Program-made: the position numbers and the translations under genes | Notes under the pieces: generated by a model | The model's input: only the letters and a program-made list of their open reading frames with translations | Database searches by the model: none | What the model was told of the DNA's origin: nothing | Shown here: piece after piece, positions 40,142 to 55,200 of the stretch | Numbering within the stretch: position 1 is the first letter of the stretch | Layout of the letters: every line of letters starts with the position of its first letter | Sequence record: PQ805430.1 | Direction: 5' to 3' (one strand) | Length of the DNA: 64,000 nt | From: Escherichia phage EK8

Positions 40142-43100
40142 ATGGCAGACTCTCTGTTGTCCCAGGCTCTTAATGCTTTAAGCAACGGCGAGTTCACCAA
40201 TCCTACCGAAGCTGTTTCCGTTCCGCAGGCTGCTCCCCAGCAGCCTGTCTCCAAAGATTCTCAAGTCCTTGACGCCACCCAACGTATTAATACTGGCTTT
40301 GCTGCTAAGGGCATCTATCCGTCTATCTCTGGTGAAATCGAACGTTTAAATCAGCAAAAAGCAGGACGTGAACAAGTCGTTCAAGCATACGAAGAAGATA
40401 TGCAACGTCTGGTTCCAACCAACGCTTTAGAGTCTGGTTCCCCGGTAATTCGCACCGGTGCCCAGATTACCAACGCAATGGCTGGTTTCGGCAGTTCAAT
40501 TGCACGTATCGCTCTCCAGGTGAAAAACCTTAACAATCTCGGTGCTGTAGCTGCCGGGATGGACGGTGCCACCGATGAAGAAAAACTCGCCTTTAACCGT
40601 GAAGCCACTCAACGTGGTGCTGAGGCTGCTGCACTGGTAGGCAATAATGCCCGTCGTGTTCAGGATATCCTCGGCGGTGTTCCGGGTGCGTCTGCTAAGG
40701 CGATTGCCGAAGCATCTGAAATCCCGAATCAGCTTAAGGCTTACCCTTCTGATACCAACCTGCTTGACCGTGAGATTCCTCGTGGTGCAGCAAAAATTCC
40801 TTCTGCAACTCAGGACGATTCTCTTCTGGGTTCGGTAGGTCAATACTTCAATAACCTGAATGATCGACTTGTCGGATCGGTAAATGGCATGACTGGTGAA
40901 GACCAGACCGGCCAGACTGAATCTGTACGTGACCGACTGCAACGTGCTCAGACTGCCCTTACCCAAACTCAGAAATCCCTGGGTAACACTGCACAAGGCG
41001 TCGATAACGAATGGGGAACGGACTCCTGGGTTAACCGTGAACAAACTCAACGTATGGCTCAGCAACTGGAAGAAGAGAATAAAGATCTCTCCATCCCTGG
41101 TGCTATTGCTAACACTGTTGGGGAATATCTGGCTAACCCTTCACTGGTTATCCAATCTGCCGCAGAGTCCTTACCTTACGCACTTGGTCGTGTCGGTATC
41201 ATTGCCGGTACTACCGGTCAGGCGGTACAAAACCAGACTGATGGTTACCGTGGTCAGGCAGATGGACAGCTTCCTACTGATGAGCAAATCAGTGATGTAA
41301 CCCGACTCAATGCGTTGCATTCTGGTTTGAACTTTGTGGAGAACGTAGTCAATGCACGCGCTCTTACCGGTCTTAGCAATGCTGCTATCACTGCTCCACT
41401 TCGCCGTGGTGGTGAAGCACTGGCTGATACTGCCCTCGGACGAGCGATTACCAACGCTGTCGCTCGGAATGGCGTATCTCGTGCTGCTCTGGCAGCAGGG
41501 CGAGCAATTACTCCCGAACCTGTTAGGGAACTTGGCCTGACTATGGCCATTAACGGTCTGACCGAAGCTGCACAAAATCAGATCGAAACTCGCAACCTGC
41601 TCGGTGATGATCGCTGGGATACCGAAGGCAACATCAATGCTGGTGTGCTTGGTGCCCTGTCTGCTGGTGTAATGACTGGCCCATCTACTCTGGCGGCTGG
41701 TGCCGGTGCCGTAGGTGAGCGTATTGCCCGTGCTGCTCAGGAACGTCGTGACGCTGCTAACCCACAAGCTGCCGAAGCTCGTCGTGCTGCACAAGACGCT
41801 GCTAAGCCGTTTGAAGATCTGACCAACCCGGAACATGCGGATTACAACCCGCAGGCTGCTATTCGCCAACAGACCAACGTGTTTGCTGATGAATCAACTA
41901 CTCCTGAAGTACGTCAGGCTGCTATCGACCGTGCTCAGTCCGTCCGTGATTCTGCCGAACAGAACCTGGCTTCGGTTACTGATGAAGTACGCCAAATCCA
42001 GAAAGATATGGCTACCCGTCAGGAAATCGAACGTCGTCTGGAAGATATCCAGACCAACCCGGATTCTGAGTACAAAGGTAGCGAAGCTCAACTGACCACT
42101 ATCCGTGACCAGATTGATGAGCGTATGCCGGATGAAGCTGCTCAACAGGATCTGGTTTCCCGCTTCCAGGCTGCAAACGAAAACGTTGAACGTGTGCGTA
42201 GTGCCTACGATCAGTTTGAGAATGCTGCTGGTCTGCGTGAACGTCAGGCTCCAGAAGAAGCTCAGGCTCAGATGGATACTGCTACCAATCCTGATGCAAC
42301 TCAGGAACAGGTTGATACGGCTGCTGACCATGTGGTTACGCACCCTATGCAGTACACCCCGGAACAACTCCGTACTCTGGCCGATGATACGACCAACCGT
42401 TTCAGCGACACTCAGCGTGAAGCGATTCGTAAACTGGCTGATGCCCGTGTTGCCCAGAACAACCTGAAAGATGATCTGCGTGTAAACCAGGATATTATGC
42501 AGGGTGGTAAGGGCTACCGTTCCCTGGGTGAATACACCTCTGCTTATGCTGCTGCTATCCGTTCCGGTGATAAGACTATGGCTACCAACCTGCGTGAGCA
42601 GTTAGGTCGCTTCCAGGCTTCTCATGAACAGAAAGCTGCCGTTGCTCAGCAAATGATGGACTCTGGTAACTACGGCCAGCTTATCCGTCAGAACAGTCAG
42701 TGGGTGGCTAACGAAGGTAAGAAACTTCGTGGTAAAGATAAGACCCGTAACGGTGCTCTGGATATTCATTCTGGCTCCGGTCGTCTGGTTGCTCGTCTTC
42801 AAGAAGAAGCCGAAGCAATCCGTGCAACTTCCGCTGCCCTGGATGCAATGTCTCAGGCTCGTCCGGCTGCTCCCGCTACCGCTCCGCAGCCGTCCTCCCC
42901 TGCACCAGCGAACGACGCAACCACAACGGTGGAGGCGAAGCCGGAACCGGCAGTGGTGGAGTCGGAAGCGACTGTTACCAAATCATCCCTCTCTCACTAT
43001 GCCAATGACGGCGTACTGACTCAGGATGCTGATGGTGATATGGCTCTGCGTCTGGATCAGTTCTCTCCGGCTGAACAACAGTTCCTGCGTGACAACAATA

Positions 43101-46100
43101 TGGTTGATGCTCAGAACATGGTTAAAGCTGCTTTCTTACGCCGTGCTGAACCGCGTAAAGATGACGCCCATAAACCACGTACTCTGAACCAGCAAGACCG
43201 CATTGCCCCGGCAGAACAACAGACTCAGCAAGAGCAGGTACAGGCTCAGGATACCAATGAGAATGACCCTACTCCGGCCAGCACTGTAGAAACCGACACC
43301 AACGTAACTACCGATCAGACTACGGCAACGAAGACTGACGAGAACACGAAGGCAGACGGTGCTACCCGTGTCCTACGTCCAGAAGGTAAATCTCTGGAGA
43401 CTGCCCGTACCGAAGAACGAGCTAAGCCATTCTCAGAACAGAACCTTGTTCTCACTGGTTTCGTTCAGCGTGTCCGTGAAGGTTTCGTTAACCCACTGGT
43501 TACCGTTGAAAACTTCATGTCCAGCGTTATGGATAAAGCTGACTGGTCTGGTCGCTTCACCGAAGTGAACCGTTACCTTGCTCAGCCGATGAACGCTGCC
43601 CAGAAGAATCTGGTCGGTATGTTCACCAAATTCCATAAAGCAGTGGAAGGTGATATCGATCCTGCTATTAAACAGAAGATCGGTAAAACCCGTGGTGGTC
43701 TGGATCGCTCTGCTTATAACTACCAGGATTTTGTCCAGTTTCTTACCACTGACGGTAAACTGGATGAAAACACGAAGACGGCCCTGACCGCCTCTATGTT
43801 CACCTGGCTTGCAGAGAACGGTAACAAGCTCATCGCCACTCGTGACGATATGGCTGGCCTGTTCCATATGGATAAAGGTGAAGTACCGGTAGAGATCCAT
43901 AATCGCTTCTCTGAGATCGGTTCTTCTCAGCGTGCTGTTATCCAGTCCCTTGGCCAACGTGCTTACCAGATGCTGGGCTTCAAGGTACTGAAAGACGTTG
44001 ACCCTAACCGTGCTGGACGTATGCAGCAAGCTCTCGGCATGTACGCAATGCACGTTATGATGAAACGTGGCTACCTGGAGCAGACAACTATGACTGCTCG
44101 TGAGTACGCCGACGTTATCACTACTGGTTTGGATCCTGAAGCTGCTCAGGCTAAACGTGCAGAGTTTGCTCGTGACTTCCTGAATGGTGAGTCCATCGAT
44201 AAAGCGAAAGAGACATTCAACTTTGTTCGTGTACCACGTAAAGAAGTAAACGGTAAACTCGTACCGGCAGATAACATTGCCCGTATCGTTGAAGCCAACA
44301 AAGGGACTTCCGGGGTTATGAGCAAGCTGTTTAGCTTTGACTCATCCCAGACTTTCCCGTTGACTAAGAAGCCAGGTAAATTCATTCAGAATACCGTAGG
44401 TGACTTTGGTCAGCAGGTTCCTTCTGAATTGGCAGAACGTCTGACTAAAGCCCAGCAACAACCGTACCGGATCAATGAGTCCCTGGTTAACGCCATGAAC
44501 ACGATCCGCAATGTGGATGAAGCTGCATTGCTGCACATGATGGGTGTTCGTACTGAGACAGAAACTCCGTTCATGCACGCTCGTGACCGTATCGGGCAGC
44601 AGGCCAAAAACGACGATATCATTCGTGCTCTGGCTAATGCTGATGAGGTAATGGGTACTCTGGATTCCATCGACCAGCAGATCTATATGCCGCTGGCAGT
44701 ATGGAGTAACAACCGTGTCGGCGTAGCGTCCAACATGCTCAACCCGCAGGGGAACAAAGTTCACCGTGCAATGGTAGGCATGGAAGCACACCGTGTTGAT
44801 ATCCCGGTAAACCAGGCACCAATCGACGCCAACGGTAACATCACTGAGTACGGCCAGTTCTTACTGACTGTGGCTCAGGGTATGGAAGAGGCGCCGATCA
44901 AGAAACCAGGCACTACTGATAAGATGCCTACGGTTGATAAAGTGACTGGTGGTACTTATCTGCAAGGTATGCAGGAATACCTGAAAAGTGACAGCGTTCG
45001 TGCTGGCATTAAAGCCATGCAGAATATCGTTGAGGGTAACTCCACTCCGCGTGATATCGAAACCGTTAAGCAAACCGTTGCCGAATTTGGCATGGGGCCA
45101 CACTCCTTCCAGTCACTCCATGCACTGGCTCTGGTTAACCAGGCTCGTGAACAGGGTGCTGAAAAAGTGCAGGTTGCTATCGGTGGCGAATCAGATGGTG
45201 TCACCAACGGGCCGATCCTTACCAATGTGCTCTATGGTACGGCAGACACTGACCTTCTCGCTCGTGGTGGCCTTTACACTGCTGACGCTGGTGTTACCAA
45301 CGTACCGCAGTACCGCGAACAAGGTGGGCAGGACTACTACCAGTTATTGGGGACAGCTCAGAAGGAAGCATGGGATGCCATGTATCCTCCGACGACTGGC
45401 CGGGTAACGGATCAGAACCAGAAGTTCCGTCGTGCAATTGATTACTTATCTCCTGGTTTCGGCTCTCGTTCGAAAGCCAAAGTACAGGCTACCCCATTCA
45501 ACTACGGTTCCGGTATGGACTCGCTCAAGCGAGCAAGTGCCAGAGACACCATTGATAGTGTCTACGGTCATATCACTGATATTGCCGAAGCCTATAGCCG
45601 TTCCAAAGTTGAGGGTGATTTTGCTCGCCATAAACTGGAGAAAGCAATCGAGATCGTACTGGCCCAGGGCAAGACGCTAGGGATTAAAGTTCCCGCATTT
45701 TCCGGCCTGGGTAAAACGGAATCACTGTTAACCACCGAATTGCCACGTCCAATTGTGGACGCGATTATGCAGATCGATATGGCTATCCGTGGTGAAGCAT
45801 CCGAGACTGCGATTGAGCGTGTTGCTGCTCACTACATCAAAACCCGTGACACTAACACTGCGATTACTAATGCAGCGTTTGAAGTGGGCAAAGTTGTACG
45901 TGACCGTGCAGAGGCTCTGGCTCTGGAACAGGCAGTTAAAGACGGGCAAGTAGGTTCCATCAACGATATCGCCGTAGAAGGCTTATCGACTGATGCAAAA
46001 GCTAACCTGTCTGAACAACTGCGTGAAGCCAGTGCTATCGTCCCTACCGCTACCGGATCCCTTTCCAAAAATAAACTGGAATCAGGTTACGTGGCTGCTA

Positions 46101-49100
46101 AGGTCGGTACTACCTTCAAAACCAATGACCCAACCACCGAGGTATATGCCTCGTTCCGTGAGGGTGCTAACCCTACTGGTACTGGCTTAACCAACACCAA
46201 ACCGACGACCTTTAAGGACGTAAGATCTGGCGCTCAGGTTAAAGAACAGATCGCTCCGGGTGTGTCTACAAGTGCATTGGTTGTGCAGGGTACTGATGCT
46301 GCAATCTCAACTCGTGTTATCGCTGAGCGTCCGGCTCAGAACTTCCATGATGCGAACCTGTTCGCTATTACGGATATGATTGAAGGTGCCAAAGCGCAGA
46401 ACAAAGCCATGTGGGATACAGTGGTCGGTTATGACTCTCAGTTAGCGAATACCGAAGCATTAATCCGCACCCTAGAAGGTGTTACCCAACAAGACGGATT
46501 AACGTCACTGGATTGGATTAATATTGCCGGGTCTTTGCAACAACTGGCTTTCAAGGCTGAACTAATTGGATCCCCTAAAGAGTCCGTATCGGCGGTAGCC
46601 GTACTTGGACGGGTAGTCGGTGATGCTTATAACCGTGAGATTGCCAAGCTCAACACACTCAACGAAGTTGAGTATGTAAACCAGTATGGTTATGAGGGTG
46701 GTGAATACCAGGTTACTGCTGCCGACCGTAAAGCTCTGGCTGACAAAATTGACTCTCTACGCATATCACGGGATAAAGCGGTTGATAAGGCAATGACTCT
46801 TGGCGGTGAACTAAATACCCTGCTACAGCAAGGTACAACCACATCCAAGCGTAAAGCCGATGCTGTTAATGCTGCTCAACGCCGTCAGGCTATTGAACAA
46901 GCTGCTGCTGATAGCGTACCGGTTACCCGTGATGCCAAAGGCAAGAACGCTCTTGAGCGTTTCCTGACTGAAAGCAAAGACGGCACCGTTAATGCTAAAG
47001 ACCTGATGAACTTTACCGTTAAGTCCCTGGCTTCCGGTCGTACTGATGGTTCAGCACTGCAAAGCCGTATGCGTACCACTTACAGCGAACTTGCTAAAGT
47101 GCTCGCAGCGACTCTGCCGGAAAACCTGACCGTTAATATCCTGTCTGCTCAACATAATCCAAAAGGGGTTATGGGTGCTGAGCAGAACGTTAACTCACGA
47201 GCATGGTTTTATAGTGACGGTAAGGTAAACCAGATCAACATCAAGATGGATGGCCCGGAAGCACCGGGGCTGGAAGTTGTGCTGCATGAAATGCTTCACG
47301 CTGCCACTGCCCGTGCTCTGGATGCTGCTCGCCGTGATCCTAAAGCTAACCCGGCTCTGACCGAAATCGTTGGCCGACTGGAATCACTGCGTAGCGAGAT
47401 CGAACAGTCCGTACAGAGTATGCCTCAGTTTGCACCGGCAGTCCGTAACGTGGACGAGTTAATCTCGTGGGGTATGACTAATCCGGCATTTCAGCAACAT
47501 CTTGATGGTTTGCAGTCCTCCATGTACCCACGTCAACGCGAAGGTGTACGTGGTCGTCTGGGTTCCATGTTTAAACAGTTTGCCAACACTGTGCTGCGTG
47601 CGGTCTACGCCTTTACTGGTCGTAAGCCTTCCGCTAAACAGATGACGGCAATGGAAGCCCTAATTCTGGATACTGCTGACGTACTCCAGACTGCCACGGT
47701 TAATCCGGGCAATGCTGGTAACGTTAATCTGGCAATGGCCTCATCTACCCGTGCAGCACAAACTGCCGGACAGTACACCCATCGCCAGATATTCGATGCT
47801 CTGTCGTCCTCGACTGCTGGTAAGCGGAACACTTCTGCCTTTACCGGAAATCTGGGTAAGATCATCGAAAATGTATCGGATAAACTGTTTAGTCAAATTG
47901 GTGGTGATCACCTGACCAACCTTCCGGCAGGTCACGGTTATACACCGGGCCAGGTATGGGCGAATGCTCTTACCGGGGGCAAGGCACCGTTCACTACCAA
48001 AGCATTGGCTGCTGGTTTCCACATGACTGACCAGGAAGCATTCGCTATCGAGTCCATTGAGACTGCGGTTGCTGCTGCTCTGGATTCTGGTTTCGGTACT
48101 GCTGTGAACCGTGAGATCCGTAAATCCTGGGAAGCTGCCCGTAAGCAGGTAACCCCGGAACAGTTCCATAACGGTAACTGGAATACGGCTACCCCGGCAG
48201 AGAAAGCTGCTGCACAAGCAAAGTGGGATCACCTGTTCAAACTGGAAGCCAGCCAGAACGGTAAGAACCGCTACCTCGCACAGTTTGTGGCAATGACTCT
48301 GGGTCATGAAGAAACCAGTAAACTGATGGGCTTCACCAATGAAGTTGCCGATGCTAACGCTCCGGTCACTCCGTTCGAGAAAGCTGCTGCCTTCTTTAAC
48401 CATTCGGTTAACTGGGCATCGGGTTACCTGACTCGCACCAACAATGGCCAACTGGTAAACCAGAAGGCTCAGGCACTGGCTCAACAGTTGATTGAAATCG
48501 ACTTGAAGAACCGTGACAAATCCGTTGATGCACTTGAGAAAGCGTTTATCTACGTCAGCGATCTGGGTGAGAAAGCTGGTAATAAAATCTGGGATGCTGC
48601 TCATGCAACTGCTGATGCGAAACTGATTCGTGAGAACCCTCTCGGTATCGTTCGTATGGCCGGGTCTATTACCCGTCTGGCTGCTAAGCGTAATCTGGAT
48701 GTGCTGAGCGATACCATTCGTCAGGTACGTGATATGAATAACCCGAATACCGCTGATGGTTGGGCTGCTCAAATCCTGTCTGATATCGCTAACCCGGATA
48801 AAGTACGTAGTGCGTTCGAATCGCTGCAACGACACACGAACCTCATTGAACAACGTCGCCGTAATTTCGCAGAAATTACTCGTGGCAACGTGATGGGAGC
48901 GTTCGAAAATAACGGTGAGTATCTGACCAACGAAGATAAAACTGCGTTGTCTTATACCCTGCTGCGAACCGAAGCACACTCACTGCTCAATACCCGCTCC
49001 CTGGATGACGTTCAGCAACTGGTTTCCAGCAAAGCTAAACGTAATGCAGAGATTCGTAATCTGGAGCAAATCGTATTGGCAGATCCGAATGGTAATGATA

Positions 49101-51232
49101 TGGTTATCCGCGCTAAAGCACTCGGCTATTATATGGTGACTGGGAAACCAACTGATGTAGGTTTAGCTAAGAATGCACAAGCCATTGCTTCTGGAGCTGG
49201 TACTCACTACGTCACGACTGGTTTAGCAGACCGCAATGGTGCCCTGACAGAGGCAATAGATCAACTGGCTACTCTGTACGCCATAGACTACTCAAAACCA
49301 GAGCATTTATCGGCTACTGCTGCCGTCATGAAACGTGAGATGGCTAACCCTTACAATGGCATTAAAGCGTTGCTGAATGTGCATAAAGTGCTGGCCGAGG
49401 ACGCAGCCTCTACCCTGTTCCAGGATAACGAGATCTCCCGGATTAAAGGCTACGTTCCAGAGGTAACCAACCCTTATCGTGATGTGAAGATTGTTGAAGA
49501 GGGTGACCGTGCTCAACGTTCAGAGCTTGAGGCAATGGGGTATCAGTTTGTAGGCATGGTGCCGACTGATCCGACTATCCCAAGCATGGGCAAGAAAGCA
49601 ATGTACGCCACTAAGGACAACGGCTCTCAACGTTACGTGTCTGGTGCTGTGAGCTTAACCAGCAATCAACGTAAAGGTTCGTCGGCTATCCGTAACCAGA
49701 ACTACCGCAAAGGGCAAGGCCCGACTGTGGCCGATGGCAGCAAAGCTGTGTATGCCGCTGCTCGTCGCCGTGCTCAAATGAGTTATAAAGACTTTGACCC
49801 TACTCAGGTTAAAGATACTTATATGATTCCGGTGTTCGGAACTGATGGCCGTATTATGGACTTCCAGTACGAGATGAATGCCACTAACCGTGACACTCTG
49901 CTGGATCGTAACAATGACTTTGCACACCTGCTGGGTCAGTACGCAGGGCAGAACTTCGATAAGCTGCATAGCCCGACTCAGAACCGAGTCATTATGGAAG
50001 CTTTACACGAAGACTACCGATCCAACTACGCTGCCAATCCAGAGCGTTACGTTGCAATTGGGCCACAAGTTGCTGATGCCCGCTCCAGAGAAATCTGGGC
50101 TATGCTGCCGCAACAGACCCGTTACGACGCTGAATCAATCTGGGGTGCAGGCGAACCTATGCAGGTACGCAGTGATCTGGTCAACCTCGTGTTCGGTTTC
50201 CGTAAGCTGACAGTGGCGAATGCCTTTGATAAGGATGCCCAGGATCGCAATATGGCCGAGTCTTTAGCGACCTCCGTTTTCAACACTCTGGGCCTCCTGA
50301 CCAATTCCAACGGGAAAGTCATGGCTGCTCAGACTGAACGTGGTGTTCAAGGGGGTGTTGAACTACTGAAAGATATTATCGTGATCCGTAACGTCACCAC
50401 TTTGATGCGCAACCTAGTGGGTAATGCAGCATTGCTGAAAGCCTATGGCGTGTCTCCGACTGATATTGTGAAGGACACCAAGACTGCTTTACAGGCTGGT
50501 TTGAGCTACCGCAAAAACACTGCACTGCTGCTGAAATACCAACAGCAACAACGTGCAGGTATCGGTAACTACGAACAGCTTGAGCAGAAGATCATTCAAC
50601 TGGAAGACCAGCTTGCTCGTAACCCGATCAAGGACTTCATCGAAGCCGGTACTATGCCGAGCATAGTTGATGATGTAGATACTTCTGATACTGCGTATAC
50701 TTTTACGTCAGGCTTACAGCAGAAGATCTCTGGTGTGACTGATAAAATCCCGGCATCTGTACGGACGGCGGCTAAGTGGGCGTTTGTGACTAAAGACACA
50801 CCGCTTTACAAATTCCTGTCCAATACCGCTCAGTTCGGTGACTTTACGTCGAAATATGTGCTGTACAAATACAGTATGAATAAGGCGGATACTAAACTGA
50901 ACCACGCAGAAGCGGTACAGCGTGCAACCGATGCGTTCGTTAACTACGACCTGCCGACTTCGCCAGAGTTGCAGTATATGAACGACATGGGTTTGTTCAT
51001 GTTTACGAAGTATCGTCTGCGGATCCAGCGTGCAATGCTGACCCTGATGAAGGAACGTCCGGGCACTGCACTGGCTCAATCCGTACTGGTGTCGCGCTTT
51101 ACCGATGCACCTCCGGCACTGGAGCCTAACTTAATTACTGGTTTGGGTAATCCGTTCTCATCCGGCGTATTGCAGTTGCCGAATGCACTGACCCAGCCGA
51201 TGCCGATTAAGTTAATCCTCGGATCGCTGTAA
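40142..51232 (+). CDS. giant virion-encapsidated RNA polymerase (vRNAP), 3696 aa
   Basis: size; embedded T7-like motifs GGESDGVTNG (A), RSKAKVQATPFNYGSG (B), NFHDANL (C); N4 vRNAP is known to be about 3500 aa. Confidence 0.8.
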   Translation: MADSLLSQALNALSNGEFTNPTEAVSVPQAAPQQPVSKDSQVLDATQRINTGFAAKGIYPSISGEIERLNQQKAGREQVVQAYEEDMQRLVPTNALESGSPVIRTGAQITNAMAGFGSSIARIALQVKNLNNLGAVAAGMDGATDEEKLAFNREATQRGAEAAALVGNNARRVQDILGGVPGASAKAIAEASEIPNQLKAYPSDTNLLDREIPRGAAKIPSATQDDSLLGSVGQYFNNLNDRLVGSVNGMTGEDQTGQTESVRDRLQRAQTALTQTQKSLGNTAQGVDNEWGTDSWVNREQTQRMAQQLEEENKDLSIPGAIANTVGEYLANPSLVIQSAAESLPYALGRVGIIAGTTGQAVQNQTDGYRGQADGQLPTDEQISDVTRLNALHSGLNFVENVVNARALTGLSNAAITAPLRRGGEALADTALGRAITNAVARNGVSRAALAAGRAITPEPVRELGLTMAINGLTEAAQNQIETRNLLGDDRWDTEGNINAGVLGALSAGVMTGPSTLAAGAGAVGERIARAAQERRDAANPQAAEARRAAQDAAKPFEDLTNPEHADYNPQAAIRQQTNVFADESTTPEVRQAAIDRAQSVRDSAEQNLASVTDEVRQIQKDMATRQEIERRLEDIQTNPDSEYKGSEAQLTTIRDQIDERMPDEAAQQDLVSRFQAANENVERVRSAYDQFENAAGLRERQAPEEAQAQMDTATNPDATQEQVDTAADHVVTHPMQYTPEQLRTLADDTTNRFSDTQREAIRKLADARVAQNNLKDDLRVNQDIMQGGKGYRSLGEYTSAYAAAIRSGDKTMATNLREQLGRFQASHEQKAAVAQQMMDSGNYGQLIRQNSQWVANEGKKLRGKDKTRNGALDIHSGSGRLVARLQEEAEAIRATSAALDAMSQARPAAPATAPQPSSPAPANDATTTVEAKPEPAVVESEATVTKSSLSHYANDGVLTQDADGDMALRLDQFSPAEQQFLRDNNMVDAQNMVKAAFLRRAEPRKDDAHKPRTLNQQDRIAPAEQQTQQEQVQAQDTNENDPTPASTVETDTNVTTDQTTATKTDENTKADGATRVLRPEGKSLETARTEERAKPFSEQNLVLTGFVQRVREGFVNPLVTVENFMSSVMDKADWSGRFTEVNRYLAQPMNAAQKNLVGMFTKFHKAVEGDIDPAIKQKIGKTRGGLDRSAYNYQDFVQFLTTDGKLDENTKTALTASMFTWLAENGNKLIATRDDMAGLFHMDKGEVPVEIHNRFSEIGSSQRAVIQSLGQRAYQMLGFKVLKDVDPNRAGRMQQALGMYAMHVMMKRGYLEQTTMTAREYADVITTGLDPEAAQAKRAEFARDFLNGESIDKAKETFNFVRVPRKEVNGKLVPADNIARIVEANKGTSGVMSKLFSFDSSQTFPLTKKPGKFIQNTVGDFGQQVPSELAERLTKAQQQPYRINESLVNAMNTIRNVDEAALLHMMGVRTETETPFMHARDRIGQQAKNDDIIRALANADEVMGTLDSIDQQIYMPLAVWSNNRVGVASNMLNPQGNKVHRAMVGMEAHRVDIPVNQAPIDANGNITEYGQFLLTVAQGMEEAPIKKPGTTDKMPTVDKVTGGTYLQGMQEYLKSDSVRAGIKAMQNIVEGNSTPRDIETVKQTVAEFGMGPHSFQSLHALALVNQAREQGAEKVQVAIGGESDGVTNGPILTNVLYGTADTDLLARGGLYTADAGVTNVPQYREQGGQDYYQLLGTAQKEAWDAMYPPTTGRVTDQNQKFRRAIDYLSPGFGSRSKAKVQATPFNYGSGMDSLKRASARDTIDSVYGHITDIAEAYSRSKVEGDFARHKLEKAIEIVLAQGKTLGIKVPAFSGLGKTESLLTTELPRPIVDAIMQIDMAIRGEASETAIERVAAHYIKTRDTNTAITNAAFEVGKVVRDRAEALALEQAVKDGQVGSINDIAVEGLSTDAKANLSEQLREASAIVPTATGSLSKNKLESGYVAAKVGTTFKTNDPTTEVYASFREGANPTGTGLTNTKPTTFKDVRSGAQVKEQIAPGVSTSALVVQGTDAAISTRVIAERPAQNFHDANLFAITDMIEGAKAQNKAMWDTVVGYDSQLANTEALIRTLEGVTQQDGLTSLDWINIAGSLQQLAFKAELIGSPKESVSAVAVLGRVVGDAYNREIAKLNTLNEVEYVNQYGYEGGEYQVTAADRKALADKIDSLRISRDKAVDKAMTLGGELNTLLQQGTTTSKRKADAVNAAQRRQAIEQAAADSVPVTRDAKGKNALERFLTESKDGTVNAKDLMNFTVKSLASGRTDGSALQSRMRTTYSELAKVLAATLPENLTVNILSAQHNPKGVMGAEQNVNSRAWFYSDGKVNQINIKMDGPEAPGLEVVLHEMLHAATARALDAARRDPKANPALTEIVGRLESLRSEIEQSVQSMPQFAPAVRNVDELISWGMTNPAFQQHLDGLQSSMYPRQREGVRGRLGSMFKQFANTVLRAVYAFTGRKPSAKQMTAMEALILDTADVLQTATVNPGNAGNVNLAMASSTRAAQTAGQYTHRQIFDALSSSTAGKRNTSAFTGNLGKIIENVSDKLFSQIGGDHLTNLPAGHGYTPGQVWANALTGGKAPFTTKALAAGFHMTDQEAFAIESIETAVAAALDSGFGTAVNREIRKSWEAARKQVTPEQFHNGNWNTATPAEKAAAQAKWDHLFKLEASQNGKNRYLAQFVAMTLGHEETSKLMGFTNEVADANAPVTPFEKAAAFFNHSVNWASGYLTRTNNGQLVNQKAQALAQQLIEIDLKNRDKSVDALEKAFIYVSDLGEKAGNKIWDAAHATADAKLIRENPLGIVRMAGSITRLAAKRNLDVLSDTIRQVRDMNNPNTADGWAAQILSDIANPDKVRSAFESLQRHTNLIEQRRRNFAEITRGNVMGAFENNGEYLTNEDKTALSYTLLRTEAHSLLNTRSLDDVQQLVSSKAKRNAEIRNLEQIVLADPNGNDMVIRAKALGYYMVTGKPTDVGLAKNAQAIASGAGTHYVTTGLADRNGALTEAIDQLATLYAIDYSKPEHLSATAAVMKREMANPYNGIKALLNVHKVLAEDAASTLFQDNEISRIKGYVPEVTNPYRDVKIVEEGDRAQRSELEAMGYQFVGMVPTDPTIPSMGKKAMYATKDNGSQRYVSGAVSLTSNQRKGSSAIRNQNYRKGQGPTVADGSKAVYAAARRRAQMSYKDFDPTQVKDTYMIPVFGTDGRIMDFQYEMNATNRDTLLDRNNDFAHLLGQYAGQNFDKLHSPTQNRVIMEALHEDYRSNYAANPERYVAIGPQVADARSREIWAMLPQQTRYDAESIWGAGEPMQVRSDLVNLVFGFRKLTVANAFDKDAQDRNMAESLATSVFNTLGLLTNSNGKVMAAQTERGVQGGVELLKDIIVIRNVTTLMRNLVGNAALLKAYGVSPTDIVKDTKTALQAGLSYRKNTALLLKYQQQQRAGIGNYEQLEQKIIQLEDQLARNPIKDFIEAGTMPSIVDDVDTSDTAYTFTSGLQQKISGVTDKIPASVRTAAKWAFVTKDTPLYKFLSNTAQFGDFTSKYVLYKYSMNKADTKLNHAEAVQRATDAFVNYDLPTSPELQYMNDMGLFMFTKYRLRIQRAMLTLMKERPGTALAQSVLVSRFTDAPPALEPNLITGLGNPFSSGVLQLPNALTQPMPIKLILGSL

Positions 51233-51239
51233 AAAATAA

Positions 51240-51264
51240 AGCCTCCCTATTCGGGAGGCTTTTT
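51240..51264. terminator. strong bidirectional rho-independent terminator after vRNAP
   Basis: agcctccc-tattc-gggaggct with A-run before and T-run after. Confidence 0.6.
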
Positions 51265-51426
51265 ACTTTCATGGTGCTCTTTCAATGCAGCCACGATAAA
51301 AGCGGCAACGATAATGACTGCCGCTAAAAGTCCAACCCCATACAGGATGAACTTAAATACCATGAGCGCACCTATCAGAGCCAGGGCACCAAAGATGCCC
51401 AATATCCAGTAGATGACACTGAGCAT
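51247..51426 (-). CDS. small two-helix membrane protein (59 aa, below ORF-track cut-off)
   Basis: hand translation MLSVIYWILGIFGALALIGALMVFKFILYGVGLLAAVIIVAAFIVAALKEHHESKKPPE; AAGGAG RBS. Confidence 0.35.
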   Translation of the reverse strand: MLSVIYWILGIFGALALIGALMVFKFILYGVGLLAAVIIVAAFIVAALKEHHESKKPPE

Positions 51427-51435
51427 CTATGCTCC

Positions 51436-52197
51436 TTAATCAAACAGATCCAACACTGCATCACCGCCAGCCGGTTTTACAAAACCTTCCTCAGTGGAGG
51501 TGACAGGTTTACCTGCATCCTGAGTCGGAGCCGGGTCAGAAAACAGATCGAGGCTGTCTTCCGATACCTCCGTCTGCTGTTCACCGCCGAACGGATTGGA
51601 TGCTGCCGTAGTGCTTTCAGCTTCGCCTTCATCTGCGAACAGATTTTCCGTCTGAGTTTCCACCGACTGCTCGGCTACGCTGCCTGACTGAGTATCAGCG
51701 AACAGATCAGTTGCTGCTTCTGTTCCTGCTCCTGCTGCCGCCGCAACCGTACTCGCTGCCGTCGTCGCTTTATCTGATCCCGTTTCAGGTTTGGTTTCCA
51801 GAACTGTTTCGGTTTCCGTACCTTTGGTTTCAGGCTGCTGCGCGTCCTGGCTTTCGCCTGCGGCTTCGCCAGACGCTTGCTGTGGTTGCTGAGTTTCTGC
51901 TGCTTGTTTAGCTTTCGCTTCATCGGCTGCAATTTCCTCTTTGGTGCGACGTTTACGACGCTTACGCGGAGTTGCAGGTTCAGCTTCACCAGTCGGTTTA
52001 GCTTCGCTTTCAGCTACCGGATCAGTGTCGTCATCGTCGAAAGTGCCCTGGGGAACTTCCTCACCGACGCCAGCTACCGCTTTGATTTCGCCACCAATCG
52101 GGCCGATGTGAATTTCAACCGGTGCCAGGCCAGTTTCGGATTTCAGACCTAACAGTACCAGACGTAGAATGTCGTCGGTATTCAAAATGATTTGCAT
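51436..52197 (-). CDS. acidic disordered protein with repeated (D/N)LF motifs (253 aa)
   Basis: DLFAD, NLFAD, LDLFSD and C-terminal LDLFD; basic patch PRKRRKRRTK. Confidence 0.5.
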   Translation of the reverse strand: MQIILNTDDILRLVLLGLKSETGLAPVEIHIGPIGGEIKAVAGVGEEVPQGTFDDDDTDPVAESEAKPTGEAEPATPRKRRKRRTKEEIAADEAKAKQAAETQQPQQASGEAAGESQDAQQPETKGTETETVLETKPETGSDKATTAASTVAAAAGAGTEAATDLFADTQSGSVAEQSVETQTENLFADEGEAESTTAASNPFGGEQQTEVSEDSLDLFSDPAPTQDAGKPVTSTEEGFVKPAGGDAVLDLFD

Positions 52198-52202
52198 CTG
52201 GA

Positions 52203-52793
52203 TTATTCCTTCTTGGCTACCATAGCCATAGTTTTAAAGAGATCGGTTTCCATCGCTGCGTAGATCGCTGCAATGGCATCAGCCATGTGTTCAGCGAGGC
52301 TTGCATTCACCTCGCCCCGGTGCATAGGCCACGGTGCCTCCGGGTGCTTAGCCATTGCCCAAGCAATTGCCTGGGCTTTGGTTGCTTCCCTGGTGCCGGT
52401 AATTACCATTCTGGTTTCGATAGCGTTAACTTCGATCAGAGGTACGCGGGTATTTGAAGCCAGACTGAGTATACCGATACAAACGCCATACCCGGCCATA
52501 GCACGGGCAGATTGACTACCATGAGGGACTTCGGCTGCGATGAGGTCACTTACCCTCATCCTGTCGATAAAGCCCTTAGAGAGCTGTTTAGCGCGGTTTA
52601 AATCGATAGCACTCTGCCGAGTTTGTTTACCCTTTGGAGTTACCGGTCGGATAACGTCCAGCCGTTCAATGATCAGCTTAGACGTTTCCGGGTTGTACAG
52701 ACCTTCGGCAATGCCCCAGTTACTAAATGAGGGGTCACACCCCAGGATCCGTAAACCTTTAGGCATCGGTATCACCTTCAACCGCTTGCTCAA
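52203..52793 (-). CDS. RuvC-like Holliday junction resolvase
   Basis: N-terminal ILGCDPSFSNWG resembles RuvC ILGIDPG catalytic motif; acidic residues later. Confidence 0.5.
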   Translation of the reverse strand: MSKRLKVIPMPKGLRILGCDPSFSNWGIAEGLYNPETSKLIIERLDVIRPVTPKGKQTRQSAIDLNRAKQLSKGFIDRMRVSDLIAAEVPHGSQSARAMAGYGVCIGILSLASNTRVPLIEVNAIETRMVITGTREATKAQAIAWAMAKHPEAPWPMHRGEVNASLAEHMADAIAAIYAAMETDLFKTMAMVAKKE

Positions 52794-53107: not shown

Positions 53108-53140
53108 GGTTACGGAAAAGAAAGCCCACCGAAGTGGGCT
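53108..53140 (-). terminator. rho-independent terminator candidate after SSB-like gene
   Basis: agcccac-cgaa-gtgggct then ttcttttcc on minus strand. Confidence 0.45.
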
Positions 53141-53157
53141 ATTGAACTACTGATCTG

Positions 53158-53937
53158 TTACAGGAACAGATCGTTCTGACCAGCCGTAGTACCAGCAGGT
53201 TCCTGGCTACCAGCAGCGTTACCCGCACCAGCGAATGCACCGCCTGGTACGCCACCAGTCCCGGCCTGAGCGACAGCTTTATATTTGTCGTTCGGCTTAC
53301 CGTCCCACTTGGTTTTCCAGGTTTCGATAAACTCAGCTTTATCTTTCTTACCGACGATTTCGCCAACGGTTTTATCGTCGCGGTCACGGAAGAATTTATC
53401 GATTTCGTTGATGGTACGTTTTTCGTTGATCGGTTCGTACACACCGGTAGATGGGTTCTTCGCAGACTTGTTCTCGATGGTTTCGAGAATACCCGCTTTG
53501 ATACGCTGGCCGATCAATGGCATCAGCATATCCACTTCGGTCGGCACTTCGCGTTTCAGATCGAAGTTGTACAGGTTGATCGTTTTCTTTTCGATCTGTG
53601 CCTGCAACTGCACCAGCGGTTTACCAACGGTCAACAGGCATAGGCTGTCCACGGTCAGGAAGCCAGGCAGATATTGCAGTTCGCCAGTCTTCTTGTCTTT
53701 GTACTTAATGGAACCCTGCTTGTTCGACACGTAGATCGTGAAGCGATGTTTGTTACCGGATTCAACTTCTTTCAGTTCGAGTTGAACGAACTTAGCGCCA
53801 CCGTTGGATTTACCGCAGTACGCCAGCACAACATCAAAGCCGTAGATGCCAGAAGTCAGGGAGCGGAAACCGCCACCTACAACGTCTTTCTCTACTGCAT
53901 TACCGGCTTCGTACTCTGCACTATCTAAAAAGCTCAT
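53158..53937 (-). CDS. single-stranded DNA-binding protein-like (259 aa)
   Basis: Gly-rich C-terminal linker ending in NDLFL tip; size and position in replication module. Confidence 0.45.
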   Translation of the reverse strand: MSFLDSAEYEAGNAVEKDVVGGGFRSLTSGIYGFDVVLAYCGKSNGGAKFVQLELKEVESGNKHRFTIYVSNKQGSIKYKDKKTGELQYLPGFLTVDSLCLLTVGKPLVQLQAQIEKKTINLYNFDLKREVPTEVDMLMPLIGQRIKAGILETIENKSAKNPSTGVYEPINEKRTINEIDKFFRDRDDKTVGEIVGKKDKAEFIETWKTKWDGKPNDKYKAVAQAGTGGVPGGAFAGAGNAAGSQEPAGTTAGQNDLFL

Positions 53938-53954: not shown

Positions 53955-54491
53955 TTATTTTTCGGATCCGTGATTCTCACTGAATCCGAGTTCGATTAAC
54001 TTTGCGCGTCTGGTTTCAACAGCCTCAGCCGCAGTCACGAACGATTTCTGATACACCTTCTTACCGTCCATCGTTATCTCAGCAACATAGCGGTTCCTGC
54101 GCTTGTTGTACCACACGCCCTGGTGACCAGTAACTGTATCCCGCAGTGCAGCCTTGTTTCGCATGTTCTGCTTAAAGGTTATGTCCCGGAGATTGCTGAT
54201 CCAGTTATGGTCACGTACCTGGTCTTCATGGTCGATCTGTCCCTCTGGCCATTTACCGTAGTAAATGAACCAGATAAGGATATGTTCAGGGTAGCTCTTA
54301 CCAAAGATGGTTATGCTACGATAGCCCGTACTTGGTACGAGACTCCCAGCACGAGAACCGAGAACAATTCCTTTATTATGAAACTTACCAATCCAAACAA
54401 GATGTCCAGTATTAGGGTCATATTCCAGTACCGATCTTAACAGTTGGGGGGTAAGGTCTTCTTTACGTAGTCGCATCACCGTAATACTCAT
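53955..54491 (-). CDS. HNH homing endonuclease with AP2-type DNA-binding domain
   Basis: IDHEDQVRDHNWISNLRDITFKQNMRN HNH core plus GVWYNKRRNRYVAEI AP2-like segment. Confidence 0.65.
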   Translation of the reverse strand: MSITVMRLRKEDLTPQLLRSVLEYDPNTGHLVWIGKFHNKGIVLGSRAGSLVPSTGYRSITIFGKSYPEHILIWFIYYGKWPEGQIDHEDQVRDHNWISNLRDITFKQNMRNKAALRDTVTGHQGVWYNKRRNRYVAEITMDGKKVYQKSFVTAAEAVETRRAKLIELGFSENHGSEK

Positions 54492-55200
54492 GCAGGCGGT
54501 CTAAGACCAGTTGCATGTCATTATCGATAAATGTTTCGTTGGACGCAAACAGACCCATCGGGCCACGGAGTCTTTCGTTCACCGTGTCTTTTGTGATCAT
54601 CGTCTGAAATACATACTTGAAGCCCAGAGCTTCTTCCTGCGGAGTGATCGTCAGCAAGTCCGACTTGTACTCTTCGAGGTCAGTCAGCTTTTTCTTCTTG
54701 GCTGCGATAACGCATGAGAAGTAGGATTCAATCCCGTTATTTTTCAGAGAACCTTTAACAGGCACGGAAGTTTCACGCACCATTTCGTCGGTCACATCGT
54801 CCTTAACATGGGCGGTGAAAATGACGTTCTTGGTGGATTTAGCTACCAGATCCTGCATTAGGTATTTGAAGAACTGAGCGAAGTTCGACCAGCCTTCCAT
54901 TTTGTTCGCCAGAGTCAGCACGTACTTGCTTTCGTACATATCCAGCAGGTAGGTAAGGCTGTCTACCACGATGGTATGAATTTCTGGTTTCTGCTCCGCA
55001 CCCATAAACATCTGCGGGATATGCTTAATCGGATCCGTGATTACCCGCTCAATGAACTTTGAGCGGAACGGTAATTTCTTACCGGCTTCGCAGTTGAGGT
55101 AGAGAACCCCTTCGGGATTCTTGATATTACGCAGCGATGCGGATTTGCCATTTGCTGCTTTACCTACCAGCAATACGAGGTTGTCATTGATGGCAGACAT
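54463..55200 (-). CDS. RecA-fold ATPase (Sak4-like)
   Basis: Walker A GKAANGKS, Walker B IVVDSL; 245 aa. Confidence 0.5.
   Translation of the reverse strand: MSAINDNLVLLVGKAANGKSASLRNIKNPEGVLYLNCEAGKKLPFRSKFIERVITDPIKHIPQMFMGAEQKPEIHTIVVDSLTYLLDMYESKYVLTLANKMEGWSNFAQFFKYLMQDLVAKSTKNVIFTAHVKDDVTDEMVRETSVPVKGSLKNNGIESYFSCVIAAKKKKLTDLEEYKSDLLTITPQEEALGFKYVFQTMITKDTVNERLRGPMGLFASNETFIDNDMQLVLDRLHEYYGDATT

Follow-up and report, generated by a model that had tools for sequence, protein, structure and literature searches.

Introduction

Proteins of one phage may carry look-alike C-terminal tails that share one receptor, a principle already known from phages T7 and T4. In T7, the acidic C-terminal tails of gp2.5 and gp4 end in Phe and share a site on T7 DNA polymerase, and in T4 the proteins gp43, gp33, and gp55 carry C-terminal tips that bind the sliding clamp. 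Here we describe a possible further case in a stretch of 64,000 nucleotides from Escherichia phage EK8 (sequence record PQ805430.1), the whole of which is called the window below. Its subject is an open reading frame (ORF) at 51436..52197 on the minus strand, which encodes an acidic, mostly disordered protein of 253 residues (the target protein), together with the nearby gene of the phage's single-stranded DNA-binding protein (SSB). The motifs repeated in the target protein resemble the C-terminal tip of the SSB, and the two proteins probably dock on a common partner. Such tips are paired between SSB and the proteins related to gp47 of phage N4, to which the target protein belongs.

The window phage is an N4-like podophage (Schitoviridae) with about 83% nucleotide identity to Cbunavirus phages of Pectobacterium and Kosakonia. 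N4-like phages form a large family, with some members put forward as agents of biocontrol or phage therapy. Their SSB stands out because its C-terminal end serves replication, recombination, and the activation of late genes, and the receptor logic of this end is poorly understood. In N4, binding of single-stranded DNA by the SSB is dispensable, and its C-terminal residues are essential, for activating the host RNA polymerase (RNAP) at late promoters (PMC4496689); this activation works via the RNAP beta' subunit's C-terminal region (reviewed in PMC4496689). In phage HK620, the last six residues of the SSB are required for Sak4 to bind SSB-coated single-stranded DNA and for annealing (PMC5928155). 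A literature search found no paper on gp47-like proteins or on a tip that they share with SSB. The data below show that a second conserved and uncharacterized protein, N4 gp47 with its relatives, carries a similar tip in all genera examined. They also provide the first role open to experiment for a gene without known function, which lies beside, or is fused to, the gene of a Holliday-junction resolvase.

The target protein carries conserved motifs that resemble the SSB tip

The target gene starts with ATG, has a ribosome-binding site (AAGGAA) 8 nt upstream of it, and encodes a protein with 52 Asp and Glu and 19 Lys and Arg residues (net charge -33), without Trp or Tyr. The preliminary description of this DNA, made from the sequence alone, had reported the ORF of 253 residues, a basic patch, an acidic tail, and repeat motifs in the tail, and we found all of them. 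It had also counted four (L)DLF repeats; four [DN]LF motifs are present, but the full LDLF occurs just twice, and the motif in the whole family is broader, [DN]-[LP]-F-[ASG]-[DE]. The gene, the islands of its tail that contain Phe, and the SSB counterpart are as follows.

51436..52197, minus strand: target gene, acidic mostly disordered protein (PHROG 27468)
51694..51711, minus strand: tip-like motif 1, TDLFAD, residues 163-168; F166 invariant in 30 sequences
51631..51648, minus strand: tip-like motif 2, ENLFAD, residues 184-189; L186 and F187 invariant in 6 close orthologs
51583..51600, minus strand: SNPFGG, residues 200-205; P202 and F203 invariant in 30 sequences
51532..51555, minus strand: tip-like motif 3, SLDLFSDP, residues 215-222; L218 and F219 invariant in 30 sequences
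51472..51486, minus strand: GFVKP, residues 238-242; G238, F239, and P242 invariant
51439..51456, minus strand: C-terminal tip VLDLFD-COOH, residues 248-253; D246, L251, and F252 invariant; counterpart of the SSB tip
53158..53937, minus strand: SSB gene (N4 gp45-like; PHROG 743, E 2e-68)
53161..53178, minus strand: C-terminal tip of the SSB, QNDLFL-COOH, residues 254-259; F258 invariant

Shuffling the tail 100,000 times gave expected counts of 0.023 for [DN]LF and 0.067 for [DN][LP]F, as against 4 and 5 occurrences observed (P<1e-5). Homologs were sought over 5.8 billion proteins, which yielded 43 down to 32% identity; a scan of viral contigs gave 6 loci and a scan of metagenomes 3, and further relatives came from look-ups of exact proteins and from annotated phage records. 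Invariance was scored in an alignment of 30 homologs with identity down to 34%, in which the repeats are conserved. The invariant columns of this alignment largely coincide with the basic arm described below and with the Phe islands F166, P202-F203, L218-F219, G238-F239-P242, and L251-F252, and outside these islands the tail evolves faster than any other part of the region. The distant locus L007 illustrates this: its backbone is about 75% identical to the window, yet most of the target gene cannot be aligned there at the nucleotide level. All Phe residues of the target protein lie within conserved islands (TFDDDD, DLFAD, NLFAD, NPFGG, LDLFSD, GFVKP, and the C-terminal VLDLFD), and all seven Phe contexts are kept in six annotated Cbunavirus orthologs, although motif 2 is gone or displaced in some distant homologs. 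The above consensus summarizes 241 motifs in 50 family members (median 5 per protein), and proteins of the window clade carry 4-6 copies of the tip motif.

The SSB-like neighbor with a Gly-rich linker and an NDLFL end was found as described: the C-terminus of the window SSB is a Gly/Ala-rich linker followed by AGTTAGQNDLFL. Residue F258 of its tip is among the 10 columns that are invariant in 33 N4-type SSBs (identity down to 37%). In the AlphaFold2 (AF2) model, residues 225-259 are disordered, with a predicted local confidence (pLDDT) below 50. The best matches of the modeled core in the PDB are OB-fold SSB-like proteins (PrgE, mtSSB, and bacterial SSBs), all of them weak, the best with E 5e-4 and a TM-score of about 0.5 or lower.

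Motif flavors in the target family follow those of the SSB tip

The window pair, QNDLFL in the SSB and VLDLFD in the target protein, is one of several flavors that occur in parallel in the two proteins (L numbers denote the loci compared). SSBs ending in ..Q(N/S/D)DLFL pair with DLF repeats (window, Cbunavirus, L020-L023), those ending in ..QDNLFM with NLF repeats (L007, L010, L012-15, L017), those ending in ..TDNPFM or ..AANPFM with extra NPF/DPF repeats (L009, L019), and those ending in ..GDDPFTM with DPF repeats and a target end ..EDDPFANFD (L016, Klebsiella phage P19-618). The three lineages with PF tips are as distant from each other as they are from the LF clade (SSB identity 41-47%). 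When SSB tips were permuted among six deep lineages, with 3-mers compared and internal motifs included, the association gave P=0.011, which is suggestive only, since the lineages are few and related.

The same pairing was seen outside this clade. In 12 other genera, represented by B2, ZC08, D505, Ea9-2, pYD6-A, EcP1, EE36phi1, RHph_I1_6, Axy24, KPP21, Gamaleyavirus, and N4/PMBT57, the protein encoded in the same slot has an end like that of its own SSB. The hosts include Pseudomonas (ZC08 and KPP21), Vibrio (D505), Enterobacter (EcP1), Rhizobium (RHph_I1_6), and E. coli (Gamaleyavirus). The following pairs are examples.

B2 (Shigella): SSB end PTKSLFAK; gp47-like end PTKSLFARN
Ea9-2 (Erwinia): SSB end APRKSLFDKKS; gp47-like end APRQSLFSGLKK..
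Axy24 (Achromobacter): SSB end ARPSLFGKK; gp47-like end RRPSLFGNLG..
pYD6-A (Pseudoalteromonas): SSB end ATSLFG; gp47-like end KQSLFG
EE36phi1 (Sulfitobacter): SSB end KSSLFDD; gp47-like end KSSIFDVD

To score this twinning of tips, the two tails were compared by their highest-scoring pair of 7-mers under BLOSUM62, and partners were permuted; P was <5e-6 over 21 genomes and 0.0008 when only the 11 basic-tip genera were taken. The link to SSB partners that the preliminary description had considered is thus upheld: the repeats fall in the SSB-tip motif class, their flavors shift in parallel with those of the SSB across lineages, and near-copies are found in 12 other genera. The phrase "flexible multivalent adaptor", also used there, is a fair description, because the repeats share the motif class of the SSB tip and the tips are twinned across genera. 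Since both proteins carry the tip, peptides from either should pull down the same receptor, and the multi-copy acidic version in the window, a natural high-avidity variant, would be the easiest bait.

The tips also come in two charge classes. SSBs of the acidic-tip clade have a core of net charge 0 to +4 and a tail of -1 to -4. In the basic-tip genera the charge is -1 to -14 for the core and +2 to +9 for the tail; EcP1 (-2) is the exception. As a separate observation, the charge of the SSB is inverted across genera, an N4-type core with an isoelectric point (pI) of 4.6-6.3 being joined to a basic tail and a window-clade core with a pI of 6.6-8.9 to an acidic one.

Membership of the target protein in the N4 gp47-like family

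Proteins in the same slot of other genera are 120-175 residues long (more if fused), start with MQ[IV]TLxQxEI, and have an acidic linker and an SSB-like C-terminus. When the N-terminal domain of the target was compared by hhalign with nine independently chosen annotated gp47-like proteins, the match scored 83.7% (E 8e-6) and covered residues 1-44, and it rose to 98% (E 2e-13) when bridging sequences from an exhaustive profile search were added. Against N4 gp47 as a single sequence hhalign gave only 2.5%; the homology emerges with multi-protein profiles. Because the N-terminal domains are homologous, we assign the window protein, on sequence grounds, to a Schitoviridae-wide N4 gp47-like family as an expanded, acidic, multi-motif member. 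Its members begin with an N-terminal domain of about 45 residues and a basic patch, and a disordered acidic linker then leads to a tip at the C-terminus like that of the cognate SSB. The N4 gp47 homologs are spread over PHROGs 7641, 18842, 27655, and 7564, and PHROGs 33948 and 14238 contain them as C-terminal halves, with no function annotated. The target itself matches the PHROG 27468 profile with E 1.2e-102 (residues 1-252 on profile positions 1-261 of 262); it matches no family in a Pfam search, and in a Foldseek comparison with viral models it matched its own family only.

The window protein has in common with the N4 gp47 homologs the slot after the resolvase gene and before the genes for a small membrane protein and the virion RNA polymerase (vRNAP), as well as the homologous N-terminal domain, the basic patch, a disordered linker of acidic character, and an xLF tip at the C-terminus. 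It differs from them in its length, greater by about 100 residues, in having 4-6 tip-like motifs where they have 1-2, in the acidic rather than basic flanks of these motifs, and in the presence of the NPF and GFxKP islands and of the invariant arm KRRKRRTKEEIAADEA.

N4 itself appeared to break the pairing rule, for the C-terminus of its annotated gp47 (..KPNLLCLQV, ..KKYRKKRLKNQYKPNLLCLQV; gene 47 at 7679-8113 of L006, EF056009) is off-pattern, whereas the neighboring frame reads ..AKPSLFAGLKR. Phage PMBT57, of the N4 species and 98.5% identical to N4, has one extra A in the A-run GAAGAAGAAAAAG, and its gene (L036 301-744) encodes a 147-residue protein ending in ..EAKEPVQAKPSLFAGLKR. The reference sequence of N4 gp47 thus probably reflects a frameshift of sequencing or annotation, or a mutation of the laboratory strain. 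Given the intact PMBT57 ortholog with its SLF tip, N4, whose SSB ends in ..AAKSLFGKK, probably follows the tip-pairing rule as well. The "gp47" described in the literature for Pseudomonas N4-like phages is an unrelated tail-fiber chaperone under a different numbering, and we set it aside.

The gp47-like gene is linked to a Holliday-junction resolvase gene

In all fetched loci that cover the region (>25 loci), the gp47-like gene directly follows the resolvase gene and precedes the genes for a small membrane protein and vRNAP. The resolvase is RuvC-like in some genera, as in the window, and RusA-like in others, a case of non-orthologous replacement. Three genera have the RusA-like and gp47-like proteins fused in one polypeptide, which is RusA-like over about residues 1-130 and gp47-like onward from about 134, each part having its own PHROG matches.

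52203..52793, minus strand: RuvC-like Holliday-junction resolvase gene (N4 gp46-like; PHROG 159, E 7e-33), directly upstream of the target gene
L026:4189-5031: fusion ZC08_013; hhalign of the gp47-like part 98.6%
L031:4286-5224: fusion EE36phi1 orf55
L032:4181-4981: fusion RHph_I1_6 064

Such fusions are a classic indication of joint function. Together with the adjacency of the two genes, they point to recombination or replication intermediates as the place of action rather than to the titration of host factors, which the preliminary description had suggested.

Architecture of the target protein

The AF2 model of the target was built with the 30-sequence alignment. It has a pLDDT of about 90 at residues 1-55, a helix at 86-102, and a pLDDT below 50 for residues 104-200, in agreement with the earlier impression of a folded N-terminus followed by a long disordered acidic tail. 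The GFVKP island forms a small hairpin in the model (pLDDT 60-69). The features outside the tip-like motifs are listed here.

52054..52197, minus strand: N-terminal folded domain, residues 1-48, with a helix at 7-22 and a beta-hairpin at 29-42 (AF2 pLDDT about 90)
52027..52044, minus strand: TFDDDD acidic patch, residues 52-57; F53 and D54 at least 90% conserved in 30 sequences
51892..51969, minus strand: basic arm and amphipathic helix PRKRRKRRTKEEIAADEAKAKQAAET, residues 77-102; most conserved segment of the family
51784..51804, minus strand: VLETKPE island, residues 132-138; E134, E138, and D142 at least 90% conserved

The N-terminal domain (residues 1-48) is the part of the target that is homologous to the N4 gp47-like proteins. 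In the basic-arm region, PRKRRKRRTK stands at residues 77-86; the arm of the target clade, KRRKRRTKEEIAADEA, is invariant (KRRKRRT), and R81, R83, R84, T85, I89, A91, D92, E93, and A94 are invariant in the 30 homologs. Judged by its sequence, the arm may serve as a nucleic-acid tether of the minor-groove type. A sequence-profile search of the PDB matched the arm alone to the N-terminal arm of the Pit-1 homeodomain (RKRKRRT) at a non-significant E of 0.2. We rejected identity with an AT-hook or a homeodomain arm on account of this match and of the missing GRP core in the window protein; the fused homolog of EE36phi1 has RGGRPRK, which contains GRP, in the place of the basic arm.

Two other assignments were also rejected. 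An acidic DNA mimic of the Ocr/ArdA type would need a folded scaffold of carboxylates, but only residues 1-55 are confidently folded and residues 104-200 fall below pLDDT 50. A structural protein of the virion does not fit a gene that lies among replication genes, and it is excluded as far as the virion proteome of phage CB1 reaches, from which CB1_75 is absent (PMC6027278).

Some further observations concern the target gene and its family. A second conserved motif, PPF[ED]xD, turns up repeatedly in the tails of family members, those with acidic tips as well as those with basic ones (TPPFDPD, DPPFEPD, DDPPFDMT; carried by L021, L009, L019, L033, and P0097-P0118), and the window protein is without it. 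A stretch of about 70 nt at about 51840-51910 on the minus strand (residues ~96-120, KQAAETQQPQQASGEAAGESQDAQ) has 0-3 mismatches to the distant loci L007, L008, and L022. This near-identity extends to synonymous sites, whereas the flanks in the same gene are 30-55% identical and the backbone about 75%, and the closer relative CB1 is less alike in the stretch than these three. Either mosaicism or gene conversion produced this tract, or the gene contains a nucleic-acid element here; the reading as an RNA element found no support (fold z-score of -1.57, no match in Rfam). A K/R/Q-rich alternative-frame ORF of 104 residues lies inside the target gene (51675-51989, minus strand, frame +2 relative to the target gene), and this frame is open for 57-145 codons in relatives; it probably arises as a side effect of a coding frame rich in GAA/GCA.

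Proposed role, and comparison with known systems

We give an even chance to the reading that the target protein, linked to the resolvase, serves as a multivalent adaptor or competitor at the docking site of the SSB tip. Motif conservation, tip twinning, synteny, the resolvase fusions, and disorder are shown by the data above; we infer a receptor shared by the twin tips, nucleic-acid binding by the basic arm, and the functional consequence that follows. The tip-like motifs would dock in a pocket that also takes the SSB tip, and through its N-terminal half the protein would act with the Holliday-junction resolvase, whose gene lies just upstream, and, via the basic arm, with DNA. The protein would in this way recruit the resolvase and the receptor of the tip to SSB-coated intermediates of replication and recombination, or keep the two together there; alternatively, it would push the SSB tail off the receptor. 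Several tip copies on a flexible acidic chain, a basic arm, and a head tied to the resolvase would make an adaptor or competitor of high avidity.

The tips differ among phages of closely related enterobacteria (KSLFGKK in N4, B2, and EcP1, DDPFTM in P19-618, and QNDLFL in the window clade). Such differences are difficult to square with a host pocket that hardly varies. Because both the tip flavor and the charge of its flanks differ between phages of such close hosts, we suspect that the receptor is encoded by the phage, and the Sak4-like gp44, the DNA polymerase, the primase-helicase, or the SSB core could be that receptor. The gp44-like AAA_24 protein is one candidate, and its orthologs in D505, Ea9-2, pYD6-A, and KPP21 are annotated as Sak4-like. 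Among candidate receptors, the net charge of the SSB core and, more weakly, of the resolvase tracks the charge of the tip, that of gp44-like does so slightly, and that of gp43-like does not.

The tips have likenesses in several known systems. As in the SSB C-termini of E. coli (DDDIPF), HK620 (NDYPPF, with Sak4), and N4 (with beta'), a hydrophobic tip with an invariant Phe sits on a disordered linker; unlike those, the motif occurs here also in a second protein that is not an SSB, and with internal repeats. We rejected the bacterial type of SSB C-terminus with its terminal Phe, because Phe is penultimate in the target (LFD), is not terminal in the SSB (LFL), and lies in internal copies in 4 of the 5 cases in the target. 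T7 gp2.5 and gp4 provide two phage proteins with look-alike tails and one receptor, as we propose here, although those tails are single-copy on active enzymes and the second carrier here is little more than a tail with a small head. As in T4, one short tip would be common to replication and late-transcription proteins, which would parallel the dual role of N4 SSB, but N4-like phages encode no clamp. An analogy may also be drawn with the NPF/DPF/DLL arrays of the eukaryotic adaptors Eps15 and epsin and with acidic activation domains, where xPF/xLF stickers sit in an acidic disordered chain and confer avidity for a folded receptor domain; there is no homology, and the cellular context is another.

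Several points weigh against the proposed role. For the seven acidic-tip lineages, the C-terminal 7-mers alone do not co-vary (P=0.49), and the permutation statistics are inflated in general, since both proteins share genomes and hence common ancestry. The tips are alike but not identical, the target ending in ..LF-D/S and the SSB in ..LF-L/M. AF2 shows a docked conformation for neither the target tail nor the SSB tail. The link to the resolvase comes from gene order and from fusions in other genera, and from nothing within the window itself. Finally, the NPF, GFxKP, and TFDDDD islands are conserved without an SSB counterpart, so that further partners are likely.

Alternative explanations

We weighed the other readings in falling order of probability. 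The strongest rival, ranked so owing to the precedent of N4 SSB, holds that the protein regulates late transcription, its tips binding the host RNAP beta' subunit's C-terminal region (the N4 SSB site) so that it times the late genes as a co-activator or anti-activator. We regard this as unlikely. The true end of N4 gp47, ..AKPSLFAGLKR, does resemble the ..AAKSLFGKK of N4 SSB, and an acidic disordered region with LF motifs recalls classical acidic activation domains. However, beta' is nearly identical among closely related enterobacterial hosts, yet the tips KSLFGKK, DDPFTM, and QNDLFL of their phages are very different, and the tie to the resolvase by gene order and fusion is not required of a transcription factor. 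We assign a low probability to a multivalent scaffold whose SSB-tip-like stickers, basic DNA-binding arm, and oligomerizing head would assemble a hub from SSB-coated DNA, the receptor of the tip, and the resolvase; if true, the hub, possibly a condensate, would couple replication, recombination, and junction resolution and, via SSB, the late-transcription switch, and the pairing of SSB and gp47-like tips would be a previously unrecognized docking code of N4-like phages. It is doubtful, too, that the receptor is the SSB core itself, with the SSB tip docking on its own or another core and the gp47-like tips loading the resolvase or cross-linking SSBs. The tails of T7 gp2.5, T4 gp32, and E. coli SSB bind their own DNA-binding clefts, and the charge of the tail is complementary to that of its own core in both the acidic-tip and the basic-tip class, which keeps the core among the receptor candidates; simple autoinhibition, however, could explain this complementarity equally well. 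AF2 leaves the SSB tail undocked, but at pLDDT <50 for residues 225-259 the model is uninformative here.

The remaining two readings look to host proteins, and we consider both improbable, the second the more so. In one, the target is a decoy for the interactome of the host SSB: its acidic xPF/xLF motifs would mimic the DDDIPF tail, absorb host nucleases or helicases such as ExoI, RecJ, RecQ, and PriA, and so shield phage DNA. The acidic Phe motifs, of which the NPF/DPF variants come close to ..DIPF, and a Gam-like end-protection gene two genes upstream would suit such a decoy. But the pockets for the host SSB tail require the free carboxylate of a terminal Phe, and the Phe of the target motifs is never terminal; moreover, homologs with basic tips in other genera are unlike the host SSB tail, and the motifs co-vary with the phage's own SSB, not with that of the host. 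In the other, the (L)DLF motifs recruit or sequester the host beta clamp, DnaN, as the preliminary description had proposed. Short DLF peptides have been reported to bind beta, the [SD]LF of the motifs fits positions 3-5 of the clamp consensus QL[SD]LF, which is likewise sited in disordered regions and at termini, and the SSB tips of the window clade read Q-x-D-L-F, like QADMF of the Pol III alpha subunit. The family-wide motifs nevertheless give this reading poor support: Gln stands at position 1 in just 3 of the 241 motifs, the Leu of position 2 is unconserved in internal motifs, the strict clamp-like pattern never occurs, and Pro takes the place of the Leu of position 4 in 87 motifs, with L-F standing at positions 4 and 5 in 146. 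The SSB tips depart from the consensus as well, ending in ..NPFM or ..DPFTM in three deep lineages and being flanked by K/R without Gln (e.g., KSLFGKK) in most genera. N4 also encodes an inhibitor of the host clamp loader, to judge by the title of Yano and Rothman-Denes 2011 as listed in PMC4496689, which makes a dependence of the phage on loaded clamps unlikely.

Genomic setting

The target gene belongs to a replication and recombination module on the minus strand, which converges with the vRNAP gene (40142-51232, plus strand, 3,696 residues). Along the direction of transcription the module encodes a gp43-like protein of 720 residues, the gp44-like AAA_24 protein, an HNH endonuclease, SSB, the Gam-like protein (PHROG 15896), the RuvC-like resolvase, the target, and a membrane protein of 59 residues.

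54463..55200, minus strand: gp44-like AAA_24 (Sak4-like) gene (Pfam AAA_24, E 2e-11)
51247..51426, minus strand: gene for the 59-residue membrane protein, next after the target gene (PHROG 22030); position conserved

The HNH homing-endonuclease gene (53955-54491, minus strand) lies between the gp44-like and SSB genes and overlaps the 3' end of the former. This insertion was found in the window clade and pYD6-A and is missing from N4, B2, ZC08, D505, and Ea9-2. Directly past the SSB stop codon there is a terminator-like hairpin (53123-53140), so the genes beyond it, the target gene included, may rely on read-through. A further hairpin of 10 bp, GC-rich and with T-runs on both strands, is located at 51238-51262 between the converging genes of vRNAP and the membrane protein; it overlaps the 3' end of the latter and looks like a bidirectional terminator. 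In phage N4, an unannotated ORF of 55 residues, hydrophobic and membrane-like, directly follows gene 47 (L006:8133-8300), and it is the positional counterpart of the 59-residue membrane protein of the window.

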